Origin: Minisyncoccota bacterium
GTDB lineage: Bacteria; Patescibacteriota; Minisyncoccia; Phycocordibacterales; JABAAK01
DNA length: 64,000 nt
Direction of reading: 5' to 3'
NCBI GenBank assembly: GCA_965216295.1
Contig: OZ244141.1
Span: 78,163-142,162, forward strand
In this document: piece after piece, positions 10,917 to 64,000 of the stretch
How the letters are laid out: each line of letters opens with the position of its first letter
How positions within the stretch are numbered: position 1 is the stretch's first letter
Position numbers and translations under genes: made by a program
Notes under the pieces: generated by a model
Told to the model about the DNA's origin: nothing
Database searches by the model: none
Seen by the model: the letters and a program-made list of their open reading frames with translations, nothing else

Positions 10917-10917
10917 A

Positions 10918-40805: not shown

Positions 40806-42182
40806 TTATATTAAATTCAAACTTCTTTTAATATTATTAAAATCACTTATAATTTTTACATCATTTTCTAGCATATCAGATACTCTATCACAGGCATACA
40901 TAACTGTTGTATGGTCTCTGTTTCCTAAGTGCTTACCAATTGAAGAATATGGTGTGTTTAAGAACTCTCTTAGTATATACATTATTATCTGTCGTATCAA
41001 AACCATCTCCTTTTTTCTTGATTTTGTTGTTATTAATGAAGGATCAATGTCATAAAAAGAACAAACCTTTTGTATAACATCTTTATGAGTTATGTTTATT
41101 TTTGCCTTTAAATTACTCTTAATAAAGTTTTTAATATTTGACAACTTTATTTGTTTGTTGTGTATCTCATTATAGAGCATAATATTTTTTACAACACTAT
41201 CAAGCTCCCGGACATTCCCATTTATGTTCTTAACAACAAAATCAACAATTTCATCCTCAACAATAAGGTCTATGTTTTCAATCTTTTTCTTGAAAATGAT
41301 ACCTAATGACTCAGAATCCACAACCTGGATATCCACAATCATACCAGAGGCAAACCTTGATCGAATACGCTCTTCAATAGAGGGAATCTCACTCGGAGGT
41401 CTATCAGAGGAGAAAATAATCTGATTATTATTATTGTAAAAATGGTTAAATAAATGGAATAATTCTATGGTAGTACGCTCCTTTCCTGCGAAGAAATGAA
41501 CATCATCTATAATAAGGAGTTGATAACTTTGGTACCTCTTACGAAAATCACTAACTCTTTCATGACCAACACCAACCGCGTCTACATAATCCTGTGTAAA
41601 GTTTTCTGCGGTCGTGTAATACACTTTTAGGTTTGGTTGTAGTTGTAATACCCTATTCCCCAACGCTTGTGTGAGGTGAGTTTTACCAACACCAGTTGGC
41701 CCATAAATAAATAGTGGATTATATACAACACCCAGTCTTTTTATAACAGCTTGAGCCGCGCTGTGTGCAAAGTCAATATACGGAGCAATAACAAATGAAT
41801 CAAAATTAAACCGAGGGTTTAGTCCAGAATTTTTATCAACTTGTTCAAATTGAAACGGTATGGTTTTATTATCCTGCTTTTTTTTCGCAGACTGATTTGT
41901 ATTAATTCTTCTGTTTATAGTAAAACGAACAAGTTTTATGTTTGTGGTTTGTTTTTGTATCTCACTAATAATAATCCGCATATATTTCTGTTGAATCCAG
42001 TTTTTAACAAACTCATTAGGAACACCAATTGTGAGAGTTTTGTCTTTATCCACATGAAGAGCGTGTGTACTAACAAACCACGTCTTAAAATTTGTTTCAG
42101 GAATTGATTTTCTCAATGATTCTAAAACCCCTTCCCAAATTGTTTGAGCATCTAATGTTCTGACCGTTTCCATTGAACCCAT
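40806..42182 (-). CDS. dnaA: Chromosomal replication initiator protein DnaA
   Basis: AAA+ Walker A GPTGVGKTHL, Walker B LLIIDDVHF, and C-terminal DNA-binding domain. The track ORF runs to 42233; the likely start is MGSMETV. Confidence 0.9.
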   Translation of the reverse strand: MGSMETVRTLDAQTIWEGVLESLRKSIPETNFKTWFVSTHALHVDKDKTLTIGVPNEFVKNWIQQKYMRIIISEIQKQTTNIKLVRFTINRRINTNQSAKKKQDNKTIPFQFEQVDKNSGLNPRFNFDSFVIAPYIDFAHSAAQAVIKRLGVVYNPLFIYGPTGVGKTHLTQALGNRVLQLQPNLKVYYTTAENFTQDYVDAVGVGHERVSDFRKRYQSYQLLIIDDVHFFAGKERTTIELFHLFNHFYNNNNQIIFSSDRPPSEIPSIEERIRSRFASGMIVDIQVVDSESLGIIFKKKIENIDLIVEDEIVDFVVKNINGNVRELDSVVKNIMLYNEIHNKQIKLSNIKNFIKSNLKAKINITHKDVIQKVCSFYDIDPSLITTKSRKKEMVLIRQIIMYILREFLNTPYSSIGKHLGNRDHTTVMYACDRVSDMLENDVKIISDFNNIKRSLNLI

Positions 42183-42329
42183 TATGGGGTATGAAGTCAA
42201 AAAAGCAAAATAGATATATAGCAGTGCTCTCAATTAAGATGTGTATAACGTTGTGAATAACTAAATAAAAATAGTATTGTGTTGTTTTGATAGATAAGGT
42301 ATACTCAGCAAGTCACACTCTCAACTTTT
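42183..42329. promoter_or_regulatory. dnaA-rpmH intergenic region with two DnaA-box-like motifs (candidate oriC part / dnaA promoter)
   Basis: TGTGTATAA (42240-42248) and TGTGAATAA (42252-42260). Classic rpmH-dnaA origin context. Confidence 0.4.
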
Positions 42330-44983: not shown

Positions 44984-45466
44984 CTATTGTATGATAAAAT
45001 TAAGGAATTTTAATGAAACCAAATCAGGGTTAACGGTATTTAATATTATATAGGATCCTATAAGGATAACCAAACTCAATAATCCATTTTTTAGCACTGT
45101 TAAAGCCTCCTCTCGCCCCTTCACATGACCACCCGCAGTTAGTGCTAATAGCCTTACCCCATAAAAGGCAATAACAACCGTAGTAAATATTGCGGCAAGA
45201 GAAAAGGCAATTTTAAAAAGTGCCGTCAATAATTTTCGAATTAACTTATTTATTTCTTCTTGATCCTTAATATTAACTCCAATCCCAGCTCCGGGTGCGG
45301 GAGGTTTAAATCCTGGTATGCCAACAGAAAAATAAATTGTTTGCATTTGGTTTTGAGAAACAGCGGTCATTTTTTGTATAGGGGTGGTGAAAAAAAACAG
45401 CGCTGTTGTAAAAAAAGCAACCACTATGGTAACGCAAATGTATTTATAGCTCGATAGTAAAATCAT
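44984..45466 (-). CDS. Small membrane protein, candidate VirB2/TrbC-like pilin
   Basis: Signal-like N-terminus plus two C-terminal hydrophobic helices. The size and topology fit T4SS pilins. There is no sequence-level family proof. Confidence 0.3.
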   Translation of the reverse strand: MILLSSYKYICVTIVVAFFTTALFFFTTPIQKMTAVSQNQMQTIYFSVGIPGFKPPAPGAGIGVNIKDQEEINKLIRKLLTALFKIAFSLAAIFTTVVIAFYGVRLLALTAGGHVKGREEALTVLKNGLLSLVILIGSYIILNTVNPDLVSLKFLNFIIQ

Positions 45467-46965: not shown

Positions 46966-46969
46966 ACAA

Positions 46970-48790
46970 TCAACTTACCGAATCATCACCACCCTCCTTT
47001 TTAGATTTTATTCGGAGCAGTTGAGATGGATCAGAGGTAATAATCTGATCTTCTGTGTAAGAAGCGATAATTTTAATAGCAACTCTTTTAAGGCCGGCGA
47101 CAAACAAACCCTCCCCAACCGCTGATTCTAAGAGTAAAAACTTTTCATTATCTGTAAGGTTAAAAATTTCTTGTAACCTCTCTATTGATGTTGCAGATTG
47201 TCGTAGCAAAAGAACCAAAGAGGCGTTGTTTAAAATTGGTTTTCCGTAAGGAGAGTTTAAGAAATCACTAACATCTTGTGTGATTGTGGCAACTCCAAGA
47301 TAGTATTTTCTACCACGCTTTACCAATCCAAACAGAAAAATAGCACTCGCCTCATCACGCATCATTACCCACGCTTCATCGACAACCAGGAGTCGTTTGC
47401 GTAATACCTTACGCACATTGTTCCATATATAGTGTGTAATAATATACATTGCTGCAGGTTTCAACTCATCTTCCATATCTCTAATGGAAAAAACAACCAA
47501 ATCTTTATTCATATTGACATTAGTTGGTTGATTGATAAAACCAGACCATGACCCTCCTGTATATTTTCCAAGACGACCAACCAACCCCTCACTCCCATCC
47601 AAACCAGCAAGTACTAAGGCAAAATCAGAAAGCAGTGGCGCTTCCGCGTTTTCAAAGTTAGCATTTGGAGTTATGTCTTTCAAGGCGTATGTCTCTGTAA
47701 TAGCTTTATCAAGAAGAGATTCTTCTGCTGCGGTCAGATTGCCTAAAAGAACACGGAACAATCCAACAAGATCAATAATATTACTTCGCAAGACATCGGC
47801 TGGATTTTCATCCTCACGAATAGCAGGAAGATCAAATGGATTGATGTGATGTTCTGAATTAAGTGAAACATTGAAATGCCGACCATCAACCGCCTTAGAT
47901 AGAGGTTCAAACTCCATCTCAGGATCAATAACAATAACATTAATACCTGCCATCAATGATCGCAACACTTCCAATTTCATAGCGTATGATTTACCAGCAC
48001 CTGATGTTGCAAAGGTAACCGAGTTGTAGTTTGGTAATGAAAAACGGTCAAATAGTATGAGTGATGCGTTATGCTGATTAACACCATAGAGAATCCCTCG
48101 ATCTGCAGAAAGACCGAATGAGACAAATGGAAATATGCTTGAGAGTGGTTCTGAGTTGAGTTTGGTGTGTATAGAAAGCACATCATTTGCAAACGGGCTA
48201 GTGCTCTTAAATCCCTGCTCTTGTTGAAACAAACTTGGCTTTACGAATATAAGACGACCATCAAGGAGTGATCGCAAATCCTTTTCTGTATCTGCTAATG
48301 ATTCCAAAGAATCACCATAGATAGTAATGTATATACCAACATCAAACAACAATTCTGTTGCCTGTTGAATTCGATCACGCAAATGCTCCAAATCTCTCCT
48401 CGCAATATCAAGTTTTGGATCACGAACCATACCCTTACGTTCTCTTTCCAGAATCTGACTCTCCACCTGCGCAACCTTCTTTCTAAAATCACGCAAAACA
48501 TTTTTTGTCTCAATGGGGTGTATGTGTATAGCGATGTCAAATTCTCTGCTAATGTTGATGATTGGTGTAAACCAACCCTCATTTAAAAAGCGAGGATACG
48601 AGACTATTGCAAGTGTCCGTGCGTACTTACCACCAAGCTCAATGTGTTTGGGAGCAACTTTGATTGCTGCGGGGGCAATAACATCTCGCAACCCAATACT
48701 GCTACGCTCAAACATTTCTTGTGGCATAAAAGAGGTAACCCCTTTCCCCTCCACAGCGCTTTTCTTTTTAAAAATATCTAAAAGTCCCAT
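46970..48790 (-). CDS. VirB4/TraC/TrsE-family conjugation/type IV secretion ATPase
   Basis: Walker A FATSGAGKSYAM, Walker B LLVVDEAWVMM, and the VirB4 N-terminal domain pattern (IELGGKYARTLAIVSYP). Confidence 0.8.
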   Translation of the reverse strand: MGLLDIFKKKSAVEGKGVTSFMPQEMFERSSIGLRDVIAPAAIKVAPKHIELGGKYARTLAIVSYPRFLNEGWFTPIINISREFDIAIHIHPIETKNVLRDFRKKVAQVESQILERERKGMVRDPKLDIARRDLEHLRDRIQQATELLFDVGIYITIYGDSLESLADTEKDLRSLLDGRLIFVKPSLFQQEQGFKSTSPFANDVLSIHTKLNSEPLSSIFPFVSFGLSADRGILYGVNQHNASLILFDRFSLPNYNSVTFATSGAGKSYAMKLEVLRSLMAGINVIVIDPEMEFEPLSKAVDGRHFNVSLNSEHHINPFDLPAIREDENPADVLRSNIIDLVGLFRVLLGNLTAAEESLLDKAITETYALKDITPNANFENAEAPLLSDFALVLAGLDGSEGLVGRLGKYTGGSWSGFINQPTNVNMNKDLVVFSIRDMEDELKPAAMYIITHYIWNNVRKVLRKRLLVVDEAWVMMRDEASAIFLFGLVKRGRKYYLGVATITQDVSDFLNSPYGKPILNNASLVLLLRQSATSIERLQEIFNLTDNEKFLLLESAVGEGLFVAGLKRVAIKIIASYTEDQIITSDPSQLLRIKSKKEGGDDSVS

Positions 48791-48791
48791 A

Positions 48792-49397
48792 CTATAGTTT
48801 TGGTACCGGCGCAGTGTCGCCCGGATTAAATGTTTGATACAACAATTCGGTAACAGCTTCGGTGTCTAGGCGAACAGCGCGAAGGCCTAAAGAGCGTATG
48901 TTATTTTGCACAAAAGAAACGCGTTGTTGTAGTTGTGTTTGAGCCTCTTCAAAGAAATTTTGTTGCTCGTTTGTTTTAGATTTTTTAAATGATAACGTTA
49001 GTGATTTTATTTGCACTGGAGAATAACCAATAATAAGAAAAAACTGCTTCGTCATAATTTCATTTGATTCAGTAAATTCAGTAATAAATTTGATATATTC
49101 TTTGGTTTGCAATCTCAACAACTCTACCTCCTGTTTGTTGTAAAGATTTTCTAAATATTCTAGGTGCTTTTGTATATTGAGGCGACGAGATTGTATAAGA
49201 ATCTGTATATTCACCTCTAATGAATTAAGCATACTCTGGAACTGATTGAGTATCGCTTCACGCTCCAAGTCAGACTTTAGATCAAAGTTTAATGAAGAAA
49301 CCAGCACGATTGCACAGAATATACCGTCCTCTCGAATGATAGTGCCATCTCGTATTTCTTTCAAAGGAACAAATGACTGTGTTGTTTTCTGTTTCAT
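48792..49397 (-). CDS. Hypothetical cytoplasmic protein, possibly a VirB4 N-terminal-domain-like accessory
   Basis: VPLKEIRDGTIIREDGIFCAIVLVSSLNFDLKSDLERE resembles the start of the VirB4/TraC N-domain. Immediately upstream of the ATPase. Confidence 0.3.
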   Translation of the reverse strand: MKQKTTQSFVPLKEIRDGTIIREDGIFCAIVLVSSLNFDLKSDLEREAILNQFQSMLNSLEVNIQILIQSRRLNIQKHLEYLENLYNKQEVELLRLQTKEYIKFITEFTESNEIMTKQFFLIIGYSPVQIKSLTLSFKKSKTNEQQNFFEEAQTQLQQRVSFVQNNIRSLGLRAVRLDTEAVTELLYQTFNPGDTAPVPKL

Positions 49398-49400
49398 ACG

Positions 49401-49823
49401 CTATGATGTTTGCCGACTGTCTTGAGAAAATTGTATCTCAGTAAGTAATTCTTTAATACGATCTGATTCATTATGATCTTTTTGAGTTTCTGAAACTTCT
49501 TCATTTTTTTGAGCCACTCTTTTTCGTGTAACCGCAACAGATTCTTGTTGTTTGTTCCAGACATATAATTTATCATTCAAGAGATATGTCAGCATTGCTC
49601 GAAGCAGGTCTATAAATGATTGGCTGTTGTGTTTGTAAAACGCTAACAATCCTCCAAGAACTCCAACAGGAGCACCCACAAGCAACGCGGTCCCAAACCC
49701 AACAAAGAAGAATAAAAAAATAAAGAGTCCAAGAGCTCCTCCTATGTACACAGCCTGCACAAAACTGAGCCCAAACAAAATGGTATCTGGAATATCAAGG
49801 TTTTGTGGTACTTGAAACCGCAT
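49401..49823 (-). CDS. Small 2-TM membrane protein (VirB3/PrgI-like candidate)
   Basis: Two adjacent TM helices followed by a charged tail. Positioned before the VirB4-like gene. Confidence 0.35.
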   Translation of the reverse strand: MRFQVPQNLDIPDTILFGLSFVQAVYIGGALGLFIFLFFFVGFGTALLVGAPVGVLGGLLAFYKHNSQSFIDLLRAMLTYLLNDKLYVWNKQQESVAVTRKRVAQKNEEVSETQKDHNESDRIKELLTEIQFSQDSRQTS

Positions 49824-52102: not shown

Positions 52103-55100
52103 TTAGAAAAAGGGGCGCGGCACATTAACATCAGGTATATTAACAAAATCATCCAATCCAGACGGCGGTGTAGTTATTTTCCGAATACTTTCATCCCTAA
52201 TCCCATAATCAGTTTTCAACGACCTATCTTTTGTTCTGGACGATCTATCACCACCAGGAACTGATTTCCAGAAATTGGAATAATCCCCCAAAATCTTTTG
52301 CTGAACTCGTCCTCGTAACGCAGCGTTATACTGTCTGCCAATTGTATTGCTACTGAATTTTGTTGCCCTAAAGGTCTGAATAGCATCATCATCTTTACTA
52401 AAAATTCTAGCAAAATTAACTGTTTTTGCTTGATCATATCCTGTTCCGTATGTTCCGTAAGATTGTGACTGTAGATTAAATGTAGGAGTGTTTTGTAATG
52501 TTATGTTGGGAATATCAATTATTCCATTTTCATAAAATAGGTAAATGACTCTGGACAACGCCCGAGCTATATTCTTGGTTTTTGTTTCACGAACTTCCTT
52601 TTTCAATGTATTAAGTGTACCTGATTCACAAAAACCTTGGCCCTCAACAGTAACATTAATTTTATCTGTACATTTTTTATAAGCAGGCGCTGCCCCGTTT
52701 TTAATTTTTTTCACAAGAGCTTTCTCAACATTTTGTGGCGTGACTTCATCACTTCCCACCAACTTACTCCTAATTTTCTTTACCCCCTCATTTCTCTCAT
52801 TTTTATACCCATCACTCAAAAAAACATCATCCTCTCCTCGAACACGGAGATATACTCCTAACGTAGATTTATAATCACCAACCAGCTTTTCAGCTACTAT
52901 CTCTTTCTGTTCTAGGTAGGATAAGTCATTGTGAAAATTTCTAAAAGAAAGATTGTTAACATCTTCGTAATAGAGGAATGTATCAGAAACATTCTTCTTC
53001 TCATCCACTATAGTGGTTTCAGTCACATCAATCTTTTTTGTTTTACGACTAATGATGACAATTTTATTCCGCCTCTCTAAAGTTTCTTTAATTTGCACTT
53101 TGGCTTTGAATCCAGAAGGTATCTCGCCGAGCACTTGCTTGCTTTCCAAACTCTTTTTCACATGATCTTTATATATCTCATAAGCTTTATAATCCTGGTC
53201 AAGTTTGGGGTTTGTAACAAGATAGTTGCCCTCATTACCAATGACACCACTCAATAAGTATCGAGCATCACCCGCTGCTTCGACATATTCTTCTGCTTCT
53301 GCGTAACCACTTTCGTCTATAAACGCTACAAAGACCGAATCACCTCCATTAGCAAGTGCATTCGCATTACGATCAAGTTGACCGGTGTCCACCGCATCTA
53401 TACCTCCTTCTAAGAGGTTTTGAAAAACATTACTGAATGTTTGCTCTATTACACTAGATAGAAGGCTACCAATTTCACTAAACTCATCAGCTTCAGACAC
53501 TTGTTCGAGTGGCAGTTGTGAAGCGAATGAAAAGCTTTCTGAGATTAAACTGTAATCCTGATATATAGTTGGTTGTGTTAAGCAGTTAATAAAAGCATCA
53601 ATATCAATCAATCCATCAGAGTTATAACTTCCATCACTACCACACCCATCAGCCTTGTCAGCATCATGACTAGACATAAGAGCTCCAGTTTCAGATGTTA
53701 CCTGCTCTCTCTTTGAAACCGTATCACCAGATATATTATTACGAATCTCTTGTGCATCAAAGAATGTTCCAATGTATAGTTCACTAAACGACTGTGCTAC
53801 ATTAAATGGTCTAAAAGTCACATCTTCTTCTATAATTTTCACATTAACATCTATATCCACATCCACGCCAAAATCAACAGTGCTTTTATTAATATTGTCA
53901 AATATATCACTCCCCTTACACGCCCTGGTTTTAATAATACCAATCCCCAATTCATCCTTTATAAGGCGTGTAAAATCAAGATTAAGGCTGTCATTACAAA
54001 AGAACCCCAAACCCTCTCCTGTCAAAAAACTTCCAACAGCCTCGTCAGCTAAATTTTTCCAGTACTCAGAAGGATTGTCTTGGAAAAAATTTGCTTCATT
54101 GCTCCAATTTACATATTTAGAAAGAAGACCTTGGGTTAGCGCGCTTGAAGCGATTCGTGCAATTCCATCGAGAAGACATTCCTTACCCACATTTGCCAGA
54201 TCGTTAGTTGGTACGCTGATTATAGAAGCGAGACCTCCTAGACCAGCAGCCAAGCAAGCAAGCAAGGTCGCCGCTGCCGCCACAACGCCCGATAAAAGAC
54301 TGCTGCCCGATCCACCACCACCACCACCTCCTTCACCTTCAAGAAGTGTTTCACCAAAATCTTCAAAATCTTCATCTGAGTTTGTTTGCACTTTTAAAAA
54401 TTCAGGTGCCACCACCTCTTCTTCATTCAACCCTTGATAAACAGCAGATATACCCCAATCTCCATCTGTTAGTTTTAAACGAACGCTACCATCACCCTTT
54501 CTTGTTTTTTCTACAACTTCCCCCGTATCTTGATTGAGCGCCACGATAGTTATTTCAATATTAGGAAATCCAGACACTTCAATTCTGTTGTCTATTTCTC
54601 CAGAAGGTGATTCAAAACCCAAAGTTTTGTTGGGCGTTTTTATCTCCAACAGGTCAGGAACATTTGTGGTTATTTCCTTACCTAAACTATCTTTATATGT
54701 AAAACTCAATGACCACTTACCATTTCCTAGAAGTAAGTCTATATAATCATTATCTTTTTGCCTTTCCTTTTTCAAAACCCGATTCCCTCTAGATGCTTTA
54801 ATAGTTATTGGGGTTTTTGGGTCTGCACTATTTATGTTATTTATTGTTATTTTATTTATTAAATTTTCACTAGGTGAAGTAAAGGAGAGAAATATGGGTT
54901 TGAGTGAAGAACCACCACCTTCTTCAGAACCAGATGGATCCCCACCACCATCTTTTTCAGAACCAGATGGATCCTCACCACCACCTTCTTCAGAACCAGA
55001 CGGATCCCCACCACCATCTTTTTCAGAACCAGACGGATCCCCACCACCATCTTTTTCAGAACCAGACGGATCCCCACCACCATCTTTTTCAGAACCAGAT

Positions 55101-55606
55101 GGATCCTCATTACCACCTCTGGGATTATTAGTTCTTCTAGTGATAAATTTTATAAAAGCAGCATTCACAGAACTTCCGGTGTATAAGGAATTATTCCTTC
55201 CAGCACCGTTAAGATTGGAACCATTACCACCATCAAAACCAGACGAACCATTACCACCATCAAAACCAGACGAACCATTACCACCACCACCATTACCACC
55301 ATCAAAACCAGACGAACCATTATCACCATCAAAACCAGACGAACCACCACCACCTCCAGGAGCAGTTGTGCTACTATCAAGGTCACCACCAGGAGGTTTT
55401 ATATTAAATATCCTAGCCAAATCTTTTGATGTTTTTGGTTCTAAAGAAGTTCCTCTTAAGGACGGGTCTACCAAAACCTCGCCATCTCCTAGTCGATCAA
55501 GCGTTCCTCGTTTTGCTTCGTCACCCTCTAAGATAAATAAATAGACACCGCTCGCTACCAAAACAACCACAGAAACAACACCAATAAGGATAAATCTAAA
55601 AGTCAT
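52103..55606 (-). CDS. Giant (1167 aa) Gly/Asp/Pro-rich repeat protein with an N-terminal TM and an internal hydrophobic segment
   Basis: Repeats (GNGSSGFDGG) x4 and (DPSGSEKDGGG) x6; poly-Gly stretches; mid-protein TM (VVAAAATLLACLAAGLGGLASII). Confidence 0.5.
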   Translation of the reverse strand: MTFRFILIGVVSVVVLVASGVYLFILEGDEAKRGTLDRLGDGEVLVDPSLRGTSLEPKTSKDLARIFNIKPPGGDLDSSTTAPGGGGGSSGFDGDNGSSGFDGGNGGGGNGSSGFDGGNGSSGFDGGNGSNLNGAGRNNSLYTGSSVNAAFIKFITRRTNNPRGGNEDPSGSEKDGGGDPSGSEKDGGGDPSGSEKDGGGDPSGSEEGGGEDPSGSEKDGGGDPSGSEEGGGSSLKPIFLSFTSPSENLINKITINNINSADPKTPITIKASRGNRVLKKERQKDNDYIDLLLGNGKWSLSFTYKDSLGKEITTNVPDLLEIKTPNKTLGFESPSGEIDNRIEVSGFPNIEITIVALNQDTGEVVEKTRKGDGSVRLKLTDGDWGISAVYQGLNEEEVVAPEFLKVQTNSDEDFEDFGETLLEGEGGGGGGGSGSSLLSGVVAAAATLLACLAAGLGGLASIISVPTNDLANVGKECLLDGIARIASSALTQGLLSKYVNWSNEANFFQDNPSEYWKNLADEAVGSFLTGEGLGFFCNDSLNLDFTRLIKDELGIGIIKTRACKGSDIFDNINKSTVDFGVDVDIDVNVKIIEEDVTFRPFNVAQSFSELYIGTFFDAQEIRNNISGDTVSKREQVTSETGALMSSHDADKADGCGSDGSYNSDGLIDIDAFINCLTQPTIYQDYSLISESFSFASQLPLEQVSEADEFSEIGSLLSSVIEQTFSNVFQNLLEGGIDAVDTGQLDRNANALANGGDSVFVAFIDESGYAEAEEYVEAAGDARYLLSGVIGNEGNYLVTNPKLDQDYKAYEIYKDHVKKSLESKQVLGEIPSGFKAKVQIKETLERRNKIVIISRKTKKIDVTETTIVDEKKNVSDTFLYYEDVNNLSFRNFHNDLSYLEQKEIVAEKLVGDYKSTLGVYLRVRGEDDVFLSDGYKNERNEGVKKIRSKLVGSDEVTPQNVEKALVKKIKNGAAPAYKKCTDKINVTVEGQGFCESGTLNTLKKEVRETKTKNIARALSRVIYLFYENGIIDIPNITLQNTPTFNLQSQSYGTYGTGYDQAKTVNFARIFSKDDDAIQTFRATKFSSNTIGRQYNAALRGRVQQKILGDYSNFWKSVPGGDRSSRTKDRSLKTDYGIRDESIRKITTPPSGLDDFVNIPDVNVPRPFF
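54910..55125. repeat. Tandem 33-bp repeats (about 6 copies) encoding DPSGSEKDGGG units
   Basis: ttcagaaccagatggatccccaccaccatcttt repeated with minor variants. Confidence 0.8.
55219..55355. repeat. Tandem 27-bp repeats (about 4-5 copies) encoding the GNGSSGFDG units
   Basis: accaccatcaaaaccagacgaaccatt repeated. Confidence 0.75.
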
Positions 55607-56994: not shown

Positions 56995-57750
56995 TTAGAG
57001 TAATGCTGCGCATTGTTTCCAAGAATCAAAAGAAACATCTTCCGCTCGTGTTGTTTCTGTAACACCACAATTCATTAAACGGGTTTGTATGTCACTGTTG
57101 TGTGCAAACTTTTTTAACACCGCTTTTCGTTTATGTCTGAAAGCTGTGTGGATTAGTGAAAAAAAGTTTTGCTGTAATTGCTCTTCAACAGGAGAAATAT
57201 TTTCTATACTCAATATTGCGGAAGACACTTGAGGTTTTGGATGAAATGCTTGAGGCGGTACTGTTGTGATAATTTTTGGTGTACCAAAAAGACGAACAGA
57301 AAGTGAGAGGAGTGAGTGTTTGGTACGATGGGTAATTCTTTGAGCAACTTCCTTTTGCAACAAAAGAGCCATGCGAGTTGGTGGTACAGACGACGTTAGT
57401 AATAATCGCAACAGTGAGCTGGTGAGATAGTATGGTATGTTTGCCACAACCACAAATGGGGTTTTGGATATATGACTTTTCCATGATTCGTTTCGCGCAT
57501 CATCTTGTATGAGAACCAACTGCTCTTTCTCCAATGCCTCAGCAAATCGTTTCTGTAGACACTCTACTAAAACAGGATCTTTTTCTACGGCGTAGAGTTT
57601 TTTTGTATGTAAAAGGAGGAGTTCTGTTAAGACACCCTTACCAGGCCCGATTTCTAAAACCACTTCATTGTGCTGTATATGTGCCGCCTTTATTAACATC
57701 CCAGCAAATCGTTTGCTTTTTAAAAAATGTTGTCCTAATCGTGCTCGCAT
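56995..57750 (-). CDS. rsmA: 16S rRNA (adenine1518/1519-N6)-dimethyltransferase
   Basis: KsgA motifs GQHFL and SAM-binding VLEIGPGKGVLT; NIPY motif (VANIPYYLTS). Confidence 0.85.
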   Translation of the reverse strand: MRARLGQHFLKSKRFAGMLIKAAHIQHNEVVLEIGPGKGVLTELLLLHTKKLYAVEKDPVLVECLQKRFAEALEKEQLVLIQDDARNESWKSHISKTPFVVVANIPYYLTSSLLRLLLTSSVPPTRMALLLQKEVAQRITHRTKHSLLSLSVRLFGTPKIITTVPPQAFHPKPQVSSAILSIENISPVEEQLQQNFFSLIHTAFRHKRKAVLKKFAHNSDIQTRLMNCGVTETTRAEDVSFDSWKQCAALL

Positions 57751-57875
57751 ATAGTTATCATATTATTACCACACCAAATGCTTTGCTGATTCTACCCTGA
57801 AGGTCATAAATCAATTTTGTTCCAAGGTGTGTTGTAATAAACACATAATAAACTATTGTGTTACTATTTGTTTAA

Positions 57876-57911
57876 TATAAAAATAAAGATGCGCTCATTG
57901 CTGAGCGCATC
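57876..57911 (-). terminator. Intrinsic terminator after paralog A
   Basis: GATGCGCTCA-gcaa-TGAGCGCATC hairpin (10-bp GC-rich stem) followed on the minus strand by TTTATTTTTAT. Confidence 0.7.
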
Positions 57912-57938
57912 TAAAGACTAAAACCTAGCCGTGAACTC

Positions 57939-58526
57939 TTATTTCAGAGCCGTTTGATCCATTACCCCTCTCAATTCATCAAGTCTCTCATCCAACGCGA
58001 CAGTTATCCGAGTTCTATAAGCAGAAATGACATCAACAGGTAACCTTAAAGTCTTACTATCAGCAAAATACTCTTTGCTCGAGTTCATAATGCTTTCCAC
58101 ATATGCAGGATTATCAGCCTGAGCATTGCAGTCGCGAACATAGATAGTAGTAATAGCATCAACCATCATGAGGTCTTCTCCGTTTACATGGAGAAGTAAA
58201 CGGCAGTATTCACCACCATCAACTCCCAAAGCATCATCAATACGACTAAAAACCGAATCACAATAACCCAATTTTTCAACCGCAACAACACCATCTTCAA
58301 GAGCGTGAACTATTCCAATGCATGTCTCCGATTTTCCGGATTCGGGTGAATGACGCTCACGCCACACAGACGCAACATAAGGATATGTTTTTTCGGTCAC
58401 ATTTTCCGGAGTTGTGGAAGTTACATCAGGGTACCCTCCAGTTCCAAAAGACGGACTCGCAGCAAACGCCACGGGAAAACTAAGCAGGGTGGCAAGAGTT
58501 CCACCAAACAAAAATTTTATATTCAT
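57939..58526 (-). CDS. Secreted small Cys-containing protein, paralog family member A
   Basis: Signal peptide MNIKFLFGGTLATLLSFPVAFA|ASPSFGTGGYPDV. GGAGAAG RBS. Four conserved Cys. The track ORF 57939..58568 uses an upstream TTG. Confidence 0.6.
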   Translation of the reverse strand: MNIKFLFGGTLATLLSFPVAFAASPSFGTGGYPDVTSTTPENVTEKTYPYVASVWRERHSPESGKSETCIGIVHALEDGVVAVEKLGYCDSVFSRIDDALGVDGGEYCRLLLHVNGEDLMMVDAITTIYVRDCNAQADNPAYVESIMNSSKEYFADSKTLRLPVDVISAYRTRITVALDERLDELRGVMDQTALK

Positions 58527-58609
58527 AATACTTCTCCAAAGCAATGAAAAACAAAAAACCCGCACCAAAGATACAGGCAGACTAAAGAACGATAATCTAA
58601 TCCAAAAGA

Positions 58610-58638
58610 ATTGTACTATATAAACATGTGGTTGTCAA
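58610..58638 (-). promoter_or_regulatory. Sigma70-type promoter of paralog A
   Basis: Minus strand reads TTGACA-17 nt-TACAAT, about 85 nt upstream of the ATG. Confidence 0.6.
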
Positions 58639-58650
58639 ATAGCTGTTTAG

Positions 58651-58686
58651 TATAAAAACAAAGATGCGCTCATTGCTGAGCGCATC
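58651..58686 (-). terminator. Intrinsic terminator after paralog B
   Basis: Identical hairpin plus U-tract. Confidence 0.7.
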
Positions 58687-58713
58687 TAAAGACTAAAACC
58701 TAATCGCGAACTC

Positions 58714-59298
58714 TTATTTCAGAGCCGTTTGATCCATTACCCCTCTCAATTCATCAAGTCTCTTATCCAACGCGGTAGTTATCCGAGTTCTATAAGCAGA
58801 AATGACATCAACAGGTATCCTTACTTTACTATTAGCAAAATAATCTTTATATTTTTCCTTCAAATTCATCATGTCTTCTATATATGCAGGATTACCAAGC
58901 TGAGTATTACAATTGCGAACATGGATATTAGTAATAGCATCAATTGGCATAAGATTAAGATCCACCACTTTTTTGTTGAAATAGCAGTATTCACCAACAC
59001 CAACTCCCAAAGCATCATCAATACGACTAAAAATCGAGCCACAATAACCCAACTTTTCAACTGCAAAAACATCATCTTCAAGAGCATGAACTATTCCAAT
59101 ACATTCCGGTTCATCAGGCGACCAGGACTCATACCACACATCCAGAATATAAGGATATGTTTTTTCGGTCACATTTTCCGGAGTTGTGGAAGTTACATCA
59201 GGGTACCCTCCAGTTCCAAAAGACGGACTCGCAGCAAACGCCACGGGAAAACTAAGCAGGGTGGCAAGAGTTCCACCAAACAAAAATTTTATATTCAT
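58714..59298 (-). CDS. Secreted small Cys-containing protein, paralog B
   Basis: Same signal peptide and N-terminus as A; diverged middle; C-terminus conserved with A (VISAYRTRIT.ALD.RLDELRGVMDQTALK). Confidence 0.6.
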   Translation of the reverse strand: MNIKFLFGGTLATLLSFPVAFAASPSFGTGGYPDVTSTTPENVTEKTYPYILDVWYESWSPDEPECIGIVHALEDDVFAVEKLGYCGSIFSRIDDALGVGVGEYCYFNKKVVDLNLMPIDAITNIHVRNCNTQLGNPAYIEDMMNLKEKYKDYFANSKVRIPVDVISAYRTRITTALDKRLDELRGVMDQTALK

Positions 59299-59381
59299 AA
59301 TACTTCTCCAAAGCAATGAAAAACAAAAAACCCGCACCAAAGATACAGGCAGACTAAAGAACGATAATCTAATCCAAAAGA

Positions 59382-59410
59382 ATTGTACTATATAAACATG
59401 TGGTTGTCAA
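59382..59410 (-). promoter_or_regulatory. Sigma70-type promoter of paralog B
   Basis: TTGACA accacatgtttatatag TACAAT on the minus strand. Confidence 0.6.
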
Positions 59411-59422
59411 ATAGCTGTTTAG

Positions 59423-59456
59423 TATAAAAAAGGTGCGCTCATTGCTGAGCGCACCT
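59423..59456 (-). terminator. Intrinsic terminator after paralog C
   Basis: GGTGCGCTCA-gcaa-TGAGCGCACC variant with compensatory stem change, plus TTTTTTAT. Confidence 0.7.
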
Positions 59457-59543
59457 AAGGGCTAAAACCTAATCGCGAACTCTTATTTCAGAGTTGTTTA
59501 ATTCACACCGCCTATTTTAACCTAGCAATCTTCCTCTCAGTCA

Positions 59544-60023
59544 TCAGGACTTAGATTCAGAAATAAGATTAGCAGGTGATAGTTGTGCTCTGTTAGCAAG
59601 AAACTCTTTATATTTTTCTTTCAGGTTATCAAGACATCCTTGAGAGATGTCAGCAGAACCATTACAGCTCAACTGAGCACCAGTTCGAACATAGATGGTT
59701 GTAAAAGTATCAATTTTTCCAAGCAGAGAATAATTCTTCGAATCTTTCAAACTCAACAAATAATTACAATTCGGATCATCATCACCCACTTTTTCAATCA
59801 TGAGAACACCGTCTTCAAGAGCATGAACTATTACAATGCATCTATAATCTAGTGATCTATAATTCCACACAGACATGAGACGAGGATACGGAGCCGCTTT
59901 TTCCGGAGTTATGGAAGTTACACCGGGGTACCCTCCAGTTCCAAAAGACGGACTCGCAGCAAACGCCACGGAAGAGCTAAGCAGGGCGACAAAAACCGCA
60001 CCAAACAAAAATTTTACATTCAT
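59544..60023 (-). CDS. Secreted small Cys-containing protein, paralog C
   Basis: MNVKFLFGAVFVALLSSSVAFA|ASPSFGTGGYPGV; C-terminus of type GCLDNLKEKYKEFLANRAQLSPANLISESKS. Confidence 0.6.
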   Translation of the reverse strand: MNVKFLFGAVFVALLSSSVAFAASPSFGTGGYPGVTSITPEKAAPYPRLMSVWNYRSLDYRCIVIVHALEDGVLMIEKVGDDDPNCNYLLSLKDSKNYSLLGKIDTFTTIYVRTGAQLSCNGSADISQGCLDNLKEKYKEFLANRAQLSPANLISESKS

Positions 60024-60104
60024 AATACTTCTCCTAAGTAATTTAAAATGAGTCCTGCGCCAAAGATACAGGCAGACCAAAGAACGATAATCTAATCCAA
60101 AAGA

Positions 60105-60133
60105 ATTGTAATACATAATAGTGTATTTGTCAA
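60105..60133 (-). promoter_or_regulatory. Sigma70-type promoter of paralog C
   Basis: TTGACA aatacactattatgtat TACAAT. Confidence 0.6.
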
Positions 60134-60145
60134 ATAGCTGTTTAG

Positions 60146-60179
60146 TATAAAAAAGGTGCGCTCATTGCTGAGCGCACCT
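60146..60179 (-). terminator. Intrinsic terminator after paralog D
   Basis: Same GGTGCGC variant. Confidence 0.7.
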
Positions 60180-60266
60180 AAGGGCTAAAACCTAATCGCG
60201 AACTCTTATTTCAGAGTTGTTTAATTCACACCGCCTATTTTAACCTAGCAATCTTCCTCTCAGTCA

Positions 60267-60752
60267 TCAGGACTTAGATTCAGAAATAAGATTAGCAGGT
60301 GATAGTTGTGCTCTGTTAGCAAGAAACTCTTTATATTTTTCTTTCAGGTTATCAAGACATCCTTGAGAGATGTCAGCAGAACCATTACAGCTCAACTGAG
60401 CACCAGTTCGAACATAGATGGTTGTAAAAGTATCAATTTTTCCAAGCAGAGAATAATTATCCATAGAATAATTTTCTATCGTAAAATTCCACAAAGAATC
60501 ACAATTCGAACTCACTTTTTTAATCATGAGAACATCCTCTTCAAGCAAATAAGCTACACCAGCACAACCAGAATCCGGCGAGTATCTCTGTTTCCACACA
60601 GACATGAGACGAGGATACGGAGCCACTTTTTCCGGAGTTATGGAAGTTACACCGGGGTACCCTCCAGTTCCAAAAGACGGACTCGCAGCAAACGCCACGG
60701 AAGAGCTAAGCAGGGCGACAAAAACCGCACCAAACAAAAATTTTACATTCAT
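60267..60752 (-). CDS. Secreted small Cys-containing protein, paralog D
   Basis: Near-identical N- and C-termini to C; diverged centre. Confidence 0.6.
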   Translation of the reverse strand: MNVKFLFGAVFVALLSSSVAFAASPSFGTGGYPGVTSITPEKVAPYPRLMSVWKQRYSPDSGCAGVAYLLEEDVLMIKKVSSNCDSLWNFTIENYSMDNYSLLGKIDTFTTIYVRTGAQLSCNGSADISQGCLDNLKEKYKEFLANRAQLSPANLISESKS

Positions 60753-60841
60753 AATACTTCTCCTAAGTAATTTAAAAATGAGTCCTGCACCAAAGGAAAG
60801 GTACAGGTAGACTATAAAAAACTATAATCTAATCCAAAAGA

Positions 60842-60870
60842 ATTGTAATACATAATAGTGTATTTGTCAA
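60842..60870 (-). promoter_or_regulatory. Sigma70-type promoter of paralog D
   Basis: TTGACA-17 nt-TACAAT. Confidence 0.6.
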
Positions 60871-60882
60871 AGAGCTGTTTGG

Positions 60883-60916
60883 TATAAAAAAGATGCGCTC
60901 ATTGCTGAGCGCATCT
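60883..60916 (-). terminator. Intrinsic terminator after paralog E
   Basis: GATGCGC variant plus U-tract. Confidence 0.7.
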
Positions 60917-60971
60917 AAGGGCTAAAACATAATCGCGAACTTTCGTTTCAGAGTTGTTTAATTCACACCAC

Positions 60972-61493
60972 CTATTTTAACCTAGCAATCTTCCTTCCAG
61001 ACATCACGATAAAGCTAGATCCAGAAATAAAATTAATAGTTCGTTCCCTGTTGGCAAGAAACTCTTCGTGTTTTTCTTTCAGGTTATCAAGAGAACATCC
61101 TTGAGGGGTGTCAGCAGAACCATTACAGCTCAACTGAACATCATTTCGAACATGGATAGTTGTAAAGGCATCAATTTTTCCAAGCAGAAAATAATTCTCC
61201 GAATCTCCCACCGATTTCCACGAATAATCACAATTCGTCGGACCAATATCCACTTCTTCAATCATGAGAACACCATCTTCAAGCAGATAAACTATTCCAC
61301 TACAGCCAGAATTCGGTGCGTATCTCTGATTCCACACAGATATGAAACGAGGATACGGATCCACTTTCTCTGAAATTGTGGAAGTTACACCAGAGGATCC
61401 TCCAGCTCCAAAAGATGGACTCGCAGCAAACGCCACGGAAGAGCTAAGTATGGTGATGACAAGAGTCGCACCAAACAAAAACTTTATATTCAT
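60972..61493 (-). CDS. Secreted small Cys-containing protein, paralog E
   Basis: MNIKFLFGATLVITILSSSVAFA|ASPSFGAGG; conserved Cys pattern; distinct C-terminus. Confidence 0.55.
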   Translation of the reverse strand: MNIKFLFGATLVITILSSSVAFAASPSFGAGGSSGVTSTISEKVDPYPRFISVWNQRYAPNSGCSGIVYLLEDGVLMIEEVDIGPTNCDYSWKSVGDSENYFLLGKIDAFTTIHVRNDVQLSCNGSADTPQGCSLDNLKEKHEEFLANRERTINFISGSSFIVMSGRKIARLK

Positions 61494-61586
61494 AATACTT
61501 CTCCTAAATAATTTAAAATGAGCCCTGCACCAAAGGTACGGGTAGACTATAAAAAACCATAATCTAATCCAATAACACAGTAATAC

Positions 61587-61615
61587 ACAATAACATTTTT
61601 GTCAAATAATTGTTT
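61587..61615 (-). promoter_or_regulatory. Sigma70-type promoter of paralog E (weaker -10)
   Basis: TTGACA-17 nt-TACTGT. Confidence 0.45.
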
Positions 61616-61650
61616 AGTATAAAAAAGATGCGCTCGTAATGAGCGCATCC
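61615..61650 (-). terminator. Intrinsic terminator region downstream of MLMQQP paralog 2 (loop variant gtaat)
   Basis: GATGCGCTC-attac-GAGCGCATC plus TTTTTTAT. Confidence 0.65.
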
Positions 61651-61800
61651 CAATTCCTCCAGGTTAAAAGTACAAGCTTGATGGAGTAAAGAAAAAACTT
61701 AATAGAGTTGTTGCTCCGTCACCCTCTTCTCATAATTCTCCTCAATCTCCTTCCGAATCTTCCACATCCCCATCATTTTCGGTGATTTTGAAGTAAAAGC

Positions 61801-62298
61801 TCATCCCCAACCAGGGAGCAACAAGGAGTAATTCACAATTATAGAAAGGTCAGTACATTGCTCAAACCCTACAGTGCGACTCCTAATAAATTCAGGAGAA
61901 CCAACCAAAACGATAAAAGCATCATCTTGATTAGTAAAACACTGCACGAATGTATCCACAATCACCGTTTCTGAAATACACAGAAGTCCAGCAATGTTTC
62001 GCACCGTATAAGTACCATCGTAAGCACCATAGTTTTTATATGAAACAAGCTTGATAAAGCGCGGATCAGACAACGAAGTTTCAATAGAACTGTTAAAATC
62101 TATAAGATCAGGTACTTCCTCCTTGAGGGGAAGAAGATGAATAAGAGGGTGAGGTCTTCTTTCATCATTAAGAACGTTGGGAGCACCCATTACCGCCTTT
62201 CGCTCTTCATTTTGACCAATGTACTCTAGAGCAATATAATCTTTGGTTTCGGCAAGACATAATACTTGCCGATTTGGTTTTGGTTGTTGCATAAGCAA
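61801..62298 (-). CDS. Cytoplasmic hypothetical protein, MLMQQP family paralog 2 (C-terminus diverged/truncated)
   Basis: Paralog of 62519..63097 through ...SPEFIRSRTV, then diverges. GGAGG RBS. Confidence 0.5.
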   Translation of the reverse strand: MLMQQPKPNRQVLCLAETKDYIALEYIGQNEERKAVMGAPNVLNDERRPHPLIHLLPLKEEVPDLIDFNSSIETSLSDPRFIKLVSYKNYGAYDGTYTVRNIAGLLCISETVIVDTFVQCFTNQDDAFIVLVGSPEFIRSRTVGFEQCTDLSIIVNYSLLLPGWG

Positions 62299-62389
62299 AC
62301 CTCCATAATTGATTCAAAGAAACCTGCACACAACATAAAAAGTCGCGTTGCAGTAGAAAGTAGATGAATCAAATCAACTACCTAAATGT

Positions 62390-62418
62390 ATTGTAATGTA
62401 TAACAGTGTGTTTGCCAA
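62390..62418 (-). promoter_or_regulatory. Sigma70-type promoter of MLMQQP paralog 2
   Basis: TTGGCA aacacactgttatacat TACAAT. Confidence 0.55.
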
Positions 62419-62430
62419 TAGTTGTTTAGT

Positions 62431-62466
62431 ATAAAAACAAAGATGCGCTCATTGCTGAGCGCATCT
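62431..62466 (-). terminator. Intrinsic terminator after MLMQQP paralog 1
   Basis: GATGCGC hairpin plus U-tract. Confidence 0.7.
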
Positions 62467-62518
62467 TGAAAATTTCCTCCAGGTTAAAAGTACAAACTTA
62501 ATGAAGTAAAGAAAAAAC

Positions 62519-63097
62519 TTAATAGAGTTGTTGCTCCATCTGATTCATTTCCTTCTCCCTCTGAATCCCAATCTTTCCCATCAGAGAGTCTATCAACTGA
62601 TTAACAAGTGTGGGATAATGCACAACCTTAAAAGGGTCAGCGCGTTGCTCTTCATTTGTTTTCTCAAACCTTACAGTGCGACTCCTAATAAATTCAGGAG
62701 AACCAACCAAAACGATAAAAGCACCATCTTGACTAGTAAAACACTGCACGAATGTATCCACAATCACCGTTTCTGGTATACACAGAACCCCAGCAATGTC
62801 TCGCACGGTACAAGTACTACCATTTCTGTAAGTATAATCAGTTCTGGAAGATACAAATCTGATAAAGCGCGAATCAAACAACGAAATTTCAATGGATTTT
62901 TTAAAATCTATAAGATCAGGTACTTCCTCCTTGGGGGGAAGAAGATGAAGAGGACAACGAACCCCTCCTTCATCATTAAAAGGGCTGTCGTGACATGTCG
63001 CCCCCCATTCTTTATACTGATCAGAGTACTCCAGAGCAATATAATCTTTGGTTTCTACAAGATATAACACCTGCCGTTCTGGTTGTTGCATAAGCAA
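62519..63097 (-). CDS. Cytoplasmic hypothetical protein, MLMQQP family paralog 1
   Basis: No signal peptide. Conserved core ETVIVDTFVQCFT.QD.AFIVLVGSPEFIRSRTV. Confidence 0.5.
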   Translation of the reverse strand: MLMQQPERQVLYLVETKDYIALEYSDQYKEWGATCHDSPFNDEGGVRCPLHLLPPKEEVPDLIDFKKSIEISLFDSRFIRFVSSRTDYTYRNGSTCTVRDIAGVLCIPETVIVDTFVQCFTSQDGAFIVLVGSPEFIRSRTVRFEKTNEEQRADPFKVVHYPTLVNQLIDSLMGKIGIQREKEMNQMEQQLY

Positions 63098-63188
63098 ACC
63101 TCCATAATTGATTCAAAGAACCTGCACACAACACCAAAAGGTCGCATCACAGTAGAAAGTAGATGAATCAAATCAACTATCTAAATGT

Positions 63189-63217
63189 ATTGTAATATAT
63201 AACAGTGTGTTTGCCAA
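63189..63217 (-). promoter_or_regulatory. Sigma70-type promoter of MLMQQP paralog 1
   Basis: TTGGCA-17 nt-TACAAT, directly after the stop of the helicase gene. Confidence 0.55.
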
Positions 63218-63233
63218 TAGTTGTTTACTATAC

Positions 63234-64000
63234 CTACCATTTTATAATCACACCAGGTGTTGTTTCATTTCTATCCTGAAAATCATCATAGAGAGCAAGG
63301 AGTGCTTGATCGTCAAATATGTCATACAAGAACGATGATGCTTGCACAGTTCTATGTTTACCCAAAAAACTACGCCGTCTTGCATACGAGCAGTACAGCA
63401 ACTTTTGCGCTCGTGTAATTGCTACATAACAGAGTCGTCGTTCCTCTTCAGCATCCCCTCTATCATCTGTTGTGAGGAATGGAAACAAACCTTCTTCCAG
63501 GCCACTTAAAAACACAACAGGAAATTCTAATCCTTTAGCCGCATGTACGGTCATTAATCGAACACCATCTCGGTGGTGACGAAGTGTGTCTTGATCAGAG
63601 CTCAATGCAGCTTCAGTGAGTATGGCATCAACACCTTTGGTTCCTTGCAGATGTGAAAATTTCTCAGCAAATGCAATTAATTCATACACCTCTTGTTTTC
63701 TTTCTTCAGGATTACCAAACGTTTCATTGAGATACGTATCATAGTCAATGGTTTTGATAAGTTTCTGTAATGTGTGTGCCACCGTCTGTGTTTCAAGAGA
63801 TTTCCGCACGTCATCAACAACCTCTTCAAACCGCTGTACCTTTTTCTGTATACGCGGAGTAATTGCATTTCGTTGCCCAGAAAAAAGTTTTTCAATTGTT
63901 TTTGCACCAATACCACGAGAAGGAATGCCGACAGCGCGAATGAAAGCATCGCGAGCGTTTCTATTCCGTGCGAGCGTTAGATATGCTAACAACCCACTTA
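63234..64000 (-). CDS. UvrD/PcrA/Rep-family helicase, C-terminal part (gene continues beyond the window end)
   Basis: Helicase motifs V/VI region: LMTVHAAKGLEFPVVFLSGLEEGLFP, VAITRAQKLLY. Confidence 0.7.
   Translation of the reverse strand, partial: SGLLAYLTLARNRNARDAFIRAVGIPSRGIGAKTIEKLFSGQRNAITPRIQKKVQRFEEVVDDVRKSLETQTVAHTLQKLIKTIDYDTYLNETFGNPEERKQEVYELIAFAEKFSHLQGTKGVDAILTEAALSSDQDTLRHHRDGVRLMTVHAAKGLEFPVVFLSGLEEGLFPFLTTDDRGDAEEERRLCYVAITRAQKLLYCSYARRRSFLGKHRTVQASSFLYDIFDDQALLALYDDFQDRNETTPGVIIKW

Follow-up and report, generated by a model that had tools for sequence, protein, structure and literature searches.

Several described systems come close to the gene array considered here, which lies between uvrD and ksgA in a 64-kb stretch of contig OZ244141.1 from a Minisyncoccota bacterium (hereafter the window). 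The variable surface protein loci of Mollicutes, such as vsp, vlp, vsa and vpma of Mycoplasma, consist of tandem paralogs with a conserved 5′ region and divergent mature parts; gene number varies between strains, chimeras arise within the locus, and the carriers are host-dependent bacteria with reduced genomes. These loci are compared here by their general descriptions rather than by their sequences. The ssl and lpl clusters of Staphylococcus aureus hold individually transcribed, fast-evolving paralogs with signal peptides, whose copy number is strain-variable and whose proteins have known folds and functions. Integron arrays combine co-oriented, unrelated open reading frames (ORFs) with a conserved palindrome between them and a content that varies between strains. 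The features listed so far, known folds and functions apart, recur in the array. A further likeness is to the phytoplasma effectors known as sequence-variable mosaics (SVMs), a concept mentioned in PMC6638208 and PMC3743221. Here too a conserved signal-peptide module is attached to mature proteins that are otherwise unrelated, within a mosaic, recombination-prone part of a reduced genome.

The uvrD–ksgA interval of the window contains seven co-oriented monocistronic cassettes (57887..63232, minus strand; Table 1). Each is built, in the same order, from a near-consensus promoter, a leader of 83-97 nt, a ribosome-binding site (RBS), an ORF of 130-200 codons with a short 3′ untranslated region (3′UTR), and a near-identical terminator hairpin. 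Cassettes 1 and 2 carry two genes of a family referred to as MQQP (MQQP-A and MQQP-B), whilst the remaining five carry signal-peptide genes, referred to as the secreted family. We read the locus as a strain-variable, lineage-specific cassette array in a Parcubacteria-like chromosome of the candidate phyla radiation (CPR), in which copy 2 of the MQQP gene would be a nonsense-truncated paralog of copy 1; from the sequence comparisons set out below, we put the probability of this reading at about 75%.

All seven ORFs end in the hairpin GATGCGCTC-loop-GAGCGCATC followed by a T-run, which is the stem-loop and T-rich tail of an intrinsic terminator. The stems are 11-12 bp long with 6-7 G-C pairs, the loops span 4-5 nt, and the predicted folding energies range from -18.6 to -22.5 kcal/mol (z = -4.5 to -6.4). 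Between cassettes the hairpin is part of a near-identical segment that runs from the 3′UTR through the terminator hairpin and T-run to TATACTAAACAGCTATTTGACA. Seven copies each of the hairpin and of the junction motif TATACTAAACARCTATTKGRCA are present in the window, against an expected 0, and every copy lies inside the array. The hairpin is also confined to the array in two sister loci, L001 and L003 (scans of ~20 kb each). An objection raised in an earlier reading of the DNA letters alone (the sequence-only reading), that the shared flanks might be generic terminators used genome-wide, does not hold over the DNA scanned. No terminator lies upstream of the TATAGTAAACAACTA of cassette 1, and a decayed junction copy, TATATTAAACAAATAGTAACA, is present between the last terminator and ksgA.

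Two of the terminators (59432-59455 and 60155-60178) carry the paired variant GGTGCGCTC...GAGCGCACC, in which the stem stays intact. At the second stem position, G-C takes the place of A-U, and one copy in L001 shows an apparent G-U intermediate, GGTGCGCTC...GAGCGCATC, around 12005. The paired change together with this intermediate is evidence of selection on the stem itself. The terminator loop of copy 2 is shorter and different (ATTAC), so that the proposal of a common hairpin and a common TTGGCA-17-TACAAT promoter for both MQQP genes stands for the stem and for both promoters, but not for the loop. Four of the secreted genes are preceded by TTGACA-17-TACAAT (11/12), which has the hexamers and spacing of a predicted sigma-70-type promoter. 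Six of the seven promoters match 10-11/12 consensus positions and that of cassette 3 falls under the scan threshold. Cassette 3 looks partly decayed: its -10 element is TACTGT, its usual stop is lost so that the ORF reads into the former 3′UTR (...SGRKIARLK), and its signal-peptide region has diverged further than any other in the window.

The two MQQP proteins are 63% identical and both lack a hydrophobic N-terminus or signal peptide. They show no detectable relation to the secreted family, in line with what had been proposed; hhalign gives a probability of 6%, and the sole aligned stretch is the signal peptide of a chimeric gene described below. The start MLMQQP had been suggested for both, but translation is more sensibly placed at the ATG 7 nt downstream of GGAGG than at the TTG two codons before it, which sits 1 nt past the RBS. 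In the secreted family, the signal peptide ends in ...VAFA|ASPSFG (AFA|AS cleavage type) and two cysteines are invariant; the MQQP proteins have no conserved cysteine pattern.

By an exhaustive hidden Markov model (HMM) search of 1.84 billion representative proteins, MQQP is an ORFan family of only three subtypes: A and B, and a third, C, that this search added. Two matches at E ~3e-4 proved to be repetitive, unrelated proteins. In a word-indexed search of 5.8 billion proteins, MQQP forms 2 clusters only and the secreted family comprises 12 proteins, all on the four array contigs. Searches of Pfam, PADLOC, PHROGs and NCBIfam give no family match (a BART match at E = 0.012 is below the cut-off and was ignored), MQQP-A has no tblastn match in plasmids or phages, and structure prediction of the array proteins yields no fold match. 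By these searches both families are limited to one species-level lineage. The hairpin scan of 185,579 GTDB species genomes returned 87 scattered chance matches and no multi-copy array locus, and relatives found by a ksgA-anchored metagenome search are <= 45% identical, without comparable repeat arrays beside ksgA. Three sister arrays stand on contigs of the ENA metagenome assembly ERZ25071281. A scan of JGI metagenomes for the junction, the kind of screen that the sequence-only reading had suggested, gave 0 matches. One two-copy match to the hairpin pattern, L040:1690-2440 (JAENZD010000006.1, an Anaerolineaceae metagenome-assembled genome), was rejected as an unrelated element of the repetitive extragenic palindrome (REP)/RAYT type. 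Its two GGGTGCGCTCTTGTTTTGAGCGCACC copies flank an ORF of ~180 residues that is a RAYT by eye (no family search made), and it is a reminder that palindromes of this kind act as REP elements in other genomes.

Cassettes 1 and 2 align colinearly at the DNA level from promoter to terminator, with identities of 89% in the upstream region, 95% in the conserved core and 85% at the 3′ end. Between the core and the 3′ end, identity is 41% over ~160 columns (alignment columns 586-745). The sequence-only reading explained this by recombination that had swapped roughly the final 30 codons of copy 2 for unrelated sequence and had left the original 3′ end behind as a fossil. The return to 85% after the dip, the blindness of BLASTP to any similarity in the tails and the clear recombination elsewhere in the array are what such a replacement would lead one to expect. 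The low-identity stretch is, however, colinear and contains significant, ordered DNA matches before and after the stop: past an in-frame 15-bp deletion, 39 nt of the copy 2 tail align with copy 1 with 29 identities (p ~0.0015 in shuffles), and a second colinear match lies behind the TGA (p ~0.013 in shuffles). All six indels between the copies are multiples of three (6, 3, 6 and 15 bp in the shared coding region; 21 and 12 bp in the relic), the relic keeps the frame of the ORF, and no other cassette in the four arrays provides a foreign donor. Replacement of the tail is thus very unlikely, and to call the last 30 codons of copy 2 unrelated overstates the case, although the last ~7 of them are without a clear counterpart.

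The 3′ remnant itself is real. The last 5 codons plus the 3′UTR to CCTGGAGGAA, a stretch running from GGAGCAACAACTCTATTAAG to AACCTGGAGGAA, match copy 1 at 61/64 positions, far above the AT-rich background. It is not a separate non-coding fossil, however: 61700..62292 translates as a single frame, ...LLLPGWG*AFTSKSPKMMGMWKIRKEIEENYEKRVTEQQLY, followed by TAA, and because the relic lies in frame right behind the TGA, the “fossil” is the in-frame continuation of MQQP-B. It had been taken as direct evidence of recombination, an interpretation that fails here, as the tail of copy 2 is colinear, diverged and cut by an in-frame TGA, not replaced.

The TGA (61801-61803) is present in 4/4 B copies, those of the window and of three sister contigs. 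Between the window and L003, 8/489 sites differ in the MQQP-B ORF (proportions of differing sites: synonymous, pS, 0.034; nonsynonymous, pN, 0.011), compared with 7/102 in the relic, where 6/7 changes alter an amino acid. The relic therefore diverges ~4x faster than the ORF (Fisher p = 0.007). It behaves like unconstrained sequence, and the truncated ORF looks weakly constrained. With the stop fixed in four strains and the relic evolving faster, a nonsense truncation is the simplest reading, and truncated MQQP-B is probably a fixed, still functional allele. The array contains a second “fossil 3′ end”: alignment places the C-terminal coding end of the long type, ...AAACGGCTCTGAAATAAGAG, in the 3′UTRs of short secreted genes (60179-60266 and 59456-59543, minus strand), and this relic arose via the earlier stop TGATGA. 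Taken with the MQQP-B relic, it indicates that premature-stop truncation occurred at least twice in the array.

Were the TGA decoded instead, by read-through, recoding or selenocysteine insertion, MQQP-B would have 196 residues and its “fossil” would be coding. The 33 downstream codons are indeed open and in frame, a 9-bp polymorphism keeps that frame, and TGA is the rarest stop among the long ORFs. The ~4-fold faster divergence of the relic, in which nearly all changes are replacements (p = 0.007, few sites), is at odds with a coding role, and TGA acts as a genuine stop within the array, where two secreted genes end in TGATGA. The code is standard: 35 ORFs of at least 250 codons in translation table 11 cover 49 kb of the 64 kb and 3/35 end in TGA, so that long table-11 ORFs argue against a sense TGA, and the window gives no indication of an alternative code (tables 4 or 25). 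No tRNA-Sec is found among the six tRNAs of the window, which is only a fraction of the genome. Read-through of the TGA is hence unlikely, with a slim chance at best.

Some observations weigh against a lineage-specific array with a nonsense-truncated copy 2. The hairpin check spans ~75 kb of a genome of at least 0.5 Mb. The DNA significance of the tail matches is moderate (p ~0.0015 and 0.013, both from mononucleotide shuffles), BLASTP of the isolated tails detects no similarity, so that homology is visible mainly in DNA, and ~7 codons before the TGA lack a clear counterpart, where a very short patch exchange is possible. The comparison of rates between relic and ORF involves 7 versus 8 substitutions only, and the relic is still open and in frame across a 9-bp strain indel, as read-through predicts likewise.

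The three sister arrays (L001, L002 and L003) are carried by three contigs of the one metagenome assembly. If cassettes are coded A, B and C for the MQQP subtypes, S and L for short and long secreted genes, P for a signal peptide in front of an unrelated Pro/Ser/Cys-rich body and X for a chimera, the window reads A, B, S, S, S, L, L; L001 reads A, L, P, C, B, X, S; L003 reads A, L, P, B, L followed by a broken cassette; and the open-ended L002 reads ..L, P, C, B, X, S, S, L... Content and order of the cassettes thus vary among four contigs from one sample. In L003 the last cassette (10782-11100) is split into ORFs of 45 and 59 residues, through decay or through an indel error in an 8x assembly.

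The modules within cassettes are exchanged as well. Cassettes with bodies of 34-47% identity agree at 99-100% of positions in their upstream regions and first 35 codons, for example P135 versus S160 of L001 (body 34%) and S160 versus L197 of L002 (body 47%). Cassettes exchange the upstream segment between T-run and ATG, and 3′UTR ends are exchanged among A, B and C types across strains. The A-to-B junction of the window is a hybrid, of A type in the 3′UTR as far as CCTGGAGGAA and thereafter identical to the C-to-B junction of L001; this is the remnant expected of a putative deletion of L-P-C by recombination within the shared 3′UTR motif. The tails of A and B co-vary in each genome, with GAGCAACAACTC (EQQLY) in the window and GAGCAAAAACTC (EQKLY) in L001, which together with the exchange of 3′UTRs bears the hallmark of gene conversion spanning the 3′UTR-terminator-promoter junction. 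The chimera X (152 residues; L001:13688-14146 and L002:3426-3884) is absent from the window. Its nt 5-263 correspond to a secreted cassette (76%, E = 8e-50), comprising promoter, leader, signal peptide and ~45 codons, and its nt 301-651 correspond to the C-terminal half and 3′UTR of an MQQP cassette (68%, E = 1e-28; E = 1e-15 at the protein level), with the breakpoint between nt 263 and 301. The variable content, shared 5′ modules, hybrid junction and chimera bear out the suggestion of the sequence-only reading that the cassettes are modular and recombine at their conserved flanks.

A perfectly conserved palindrome at each cassette boundary, with unrelated ORFs between identical junctions, could also be the site of a dedicated recombinase, akin to integron attC or to REP/RAYT elements, and the array would then be a platform for cassette capture; a tyrosine-recombinase gene does lie ~8 kb upstream in L001. 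It lies beyond housekeeping genes, however, and no recombinase gene is next to the array, which is flanked by uvrD and ksgA. Hairpin and T-run together have the classic form of a terminator, every cassette is co-oriented and has its own promoter, and the junction sequences on reading contain no GTTRRRY core. The exchange ends vary within 3′UTRs, leaders and signal-peptide codons, as homologous recombination expects. We consider a dedicated recombinase site highly improbable.

The cassette anatomy, the in-frame stop, the differences between strains and the mosaic of modules are directly visible in these four arrays; the recombination behind them would be homologous, acting among the junction repeats through unequal crossing-over and gene conversion. 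Such events would add, delete and reorder cassettes and would transfer 5′ or 3′ modules from one gene body to another, unrelated one. In copy 2, the tail would have diverged from copy 1 through substitutions and in-frame indels and then have gained the in-frame TGA, which would remove the last 33 codons and let them persist as 3′UTR, whilst junction-homogenising gene conversion would have kept the extreme 3′ end copy 1-like.

It had been speculated that the secreted paralogs have cognate immunity or chaperone partners in the MQQP proteins, an arrangement like that of toxin-immunity or effector-chaperone modules. The two families are co-located and co-vary in one array, small leaderless proteins stand beside exported ones, and the two invariant cysteines of the secreted family would fit an extracellular, disulfide-bonded protein. 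The ratio of MQQP to secreted genes is not fixed, however (2:5 in the window, 3 plus the chimera to 3 in L001 and 2:3 in L003), and the two kinds of gene vary independently between strains in their counts and neighbours. Each gene has its own predicted promoter and terminator, which points away from co-transcription, and no toxin, immunity or defence family is matched in Pfam, PADLOC, PHROG or NCBIfam. In chimera X the C-terminal half of an MQQP protein follows a Sec signal peptide, an arrangement that does not suit a strictly cytoplasmic partner. A role in immunity or as a chaperone is somewhat disfavoured and rather improbable. Our best guess is that the array provides a fast-evolving repertoire for interaction at the cell surface or with partner cells, of which MQQP is the leaderless branch rather than a set of dedicated immunity partners.

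A more ambitious proposal can be put forward only tentatively, as a rather improbable whole. The junction may be a selected “plug-and-play” frame with which unrelated small ORFs, be they exported, leaderless or chimeras of both, are shuffled, captured and independently expressed at one chromosomal site, and it would then be a homologous-recombination analogue of an integron that generates strain-specific host-interaction repertoires. As part of the same proposal, a type IV secretion system (T4SS)-like cluster nearby could export the leaderless MQQP proteins, with the Glu-rich C-terminal tail as the signal, which would be lost in copy B.

The window is chromosomal, with dnaA (40806..42233), polA, valS, nrdA, PBP1A and pilB. 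The named relatives of DnaA (40-43% identity) are all from Paceibacterota, Parcubacteria or Minisyncoccia, and the GC content of the array is 38.9% compared with 39.3% for the window. The similar GC, the chromosomal context and the DnaA relatives indicate a native origin. The nearest relatives of ksgA are <= 45% identical, and several top-ranked contigs have the names of groundwater projects, e.g. Hainich. Beyond ksgA, a few kb from the array, lies the T4SS-like cluster (44984-49823, minus strand). Between the array and this cluster is a gene for a protein of 1167 residues (52103-55606, minus strand) with Gly/Ser/Asp-rich tandem repeats (GGGDPSGSEKD...) and no family match; its length is strain-variable, with 1377 residues in L003, and L001 has a 606-residue gene and, overlapping it, a 776-residue gene that runs out of the locus.

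The leaders and the opposite strand show further features. The leader hairpin of cassette 1, CUGUGAUGCGACC...GGUGUUGUGUGCAG, folds no better than shuffles (z = -0.57) and is purely descriptive. In the secreted cassettes a second leader hairpin occurs at 59330-59350 and 58558-58578, and also at 60784-60807 (minus strand); where UUUUUUGUUUUU comes after it, in the two long-type genes, it is terminator-like, a possible attenuator between promoter and RBS. A consensus fold across all leaders is unconvincing (-1.2 kcal/mol), no Rfam family is found at E < 0.3 in 57000..64000, and no leader RNA element is claimed. An antisense ORF of 179 residues across MQQP-A (62528-63067, plus strand) is closed in copy 2 and looks like chance in AT-rich coding sequence. 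Copy 2 alone has an antisense promoter-like site and a hairpin with a T-run (62212-62272, plus strand), which also looks like chance.

Table 1. Positions of the array features and neighbouring genes in the 64-kb window.
Feature	Position	Strand	Description and basis
uvrD/pcrA-type helicase gene	63234..63992	minus	flank before cassette 1
First repeat-unit start TATAGTAAACAACTA	63211..63232	minus	just upstream of cassette 1 promoter; junction motif search
Cassette 1 promoter	63189..63217	minus	predicted, TTGGCA-17-TACAAT; promoter scan, 10/12
Cassette 1 leader	63092..63188	minus	97 nt; GGAGG RBS 7 nt before ATG
MQQP-A gene	62519..63091	minus	190 residues, full-length, without signal peptide; stop TAA 62519..62521
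Cassette 1 terminator	62440..62467	minus	12-bp stem, loop AGCAAUG region, then UUUGUUUUUAUA; -20.3 kcal/mol, z = -4.5
Cassette 2 promoter	62390..62418	minus	predicted, TTGGCA-17-TACAAT; promoter scan
Cassette 2 leader	62293..62389	minus	97 nt; hairpin (z = -2.8), GGAGG RBS
MQQP-B gene	61801..62292	minus	163 residues; C-terminally truncated MQQP-A paralog; in-frame TGA at 61801..61803
MQQP-B relic AFTSKSPKMMGMWKIRKEIEENYEKRVTEQQLY	61699..61800	minus	33 in-frame codons behind TGA, now 3′UTR; TAA at 61699..61701; translation and alignment to copy 1
Cassette 2 terminator	61625..61651	minus	array stem, 5-nt loop variant; -18.6 kcal/mol, z = -4.9
Cassette 3 junction motif match	61600..61621	minus	junction motif search
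Cassette 3 (secreted) promoter	61577..61605	minus	predicted, TTGACA-17-TACTGT, weakened -10; read from sequence
Secreted ORFs (five)	60972..61493, 60267..60752, 59544..60023, 58714..59298, 57939..58526	minus	
Secreted-cassette terminators (five)	60891..60916, 60154..60179, 59431..59456, 58662..58687, 57887..57912	minus	
ksgA/rsmA	56995..57750	minus	flank after last cassette
PrgI-family protein	49401..49823	minus	T4SS-like cluster
TraG/VirB4-like P-loop ATPase	46970..48790	minus	T4SS-like cluster
T4SS pilin	44984..45466	minus	T4SS-like cluster

In CPR/Patescibacteria, the ways in which episymbionts recognise and attach to their hosts are largely unknown, and most strain-variable genes are unannotated. 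The locus is a compact, well-delimited case of rapid repertoire evolution, in which four versions of an array from one sample can be compared and their junctions traced, and its exported and leaderless ORFans are concrete candidates for studies of host interaction. In addition, the array shows clearly, in a natural setting, how expression units from promoter to terminator are duplicated, truncated and recombined. The “fossil 3′ end” of copy 2, as an ordinary nonsense truncation, is of little importance alone.

No such array was found to be described in the literature, where a paper on “hypervariation” in Gracilibacteria concerns an intragenic repeat. The array departs from each of the systems introduced at the outset. 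In contrast to the Mollicute surface protein loci, its signal peptides lack a lipobox, with no cysteine before residue ~60, and it has no intragenic tandem repeats, adjacent site-specific invertase or single expression site; each gene has a constitutive-looking promoter and a terminator of its own, and leaderless genes are included. Features of phase variation are likewise absent from the array: there is no adjacent recombinase, the promoter spacers contain no homopolymer or repeat tract, and the co-oriented cassettes all have complete promoters. Unlike the phytoplasma SVM loci, the array lies outside any potential mobile unit, has no transposase and occupies a fixed chromosomal site between uvrD and ksgA; the five secreted proteins have no Pfam match at E <= 1, and hence none to SVM_signal (PF12113). 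Integron arrays differ in having IntI, attI and imperfect attC sites, whereas the array has a perfect terminator stem with a T-run, its cassettes carry their own promoters, and exchange looks homologous rather than site-specific. From the ssl and lpl clusters the array differs in that both gene families are ORFans of one species-level lineage, and in a non-coding framing of far greater uniformity. The locus is thus unusual in its uniform promoter-to-terminator framing and in the mixture of exported and leaderless ORFans that it contains.

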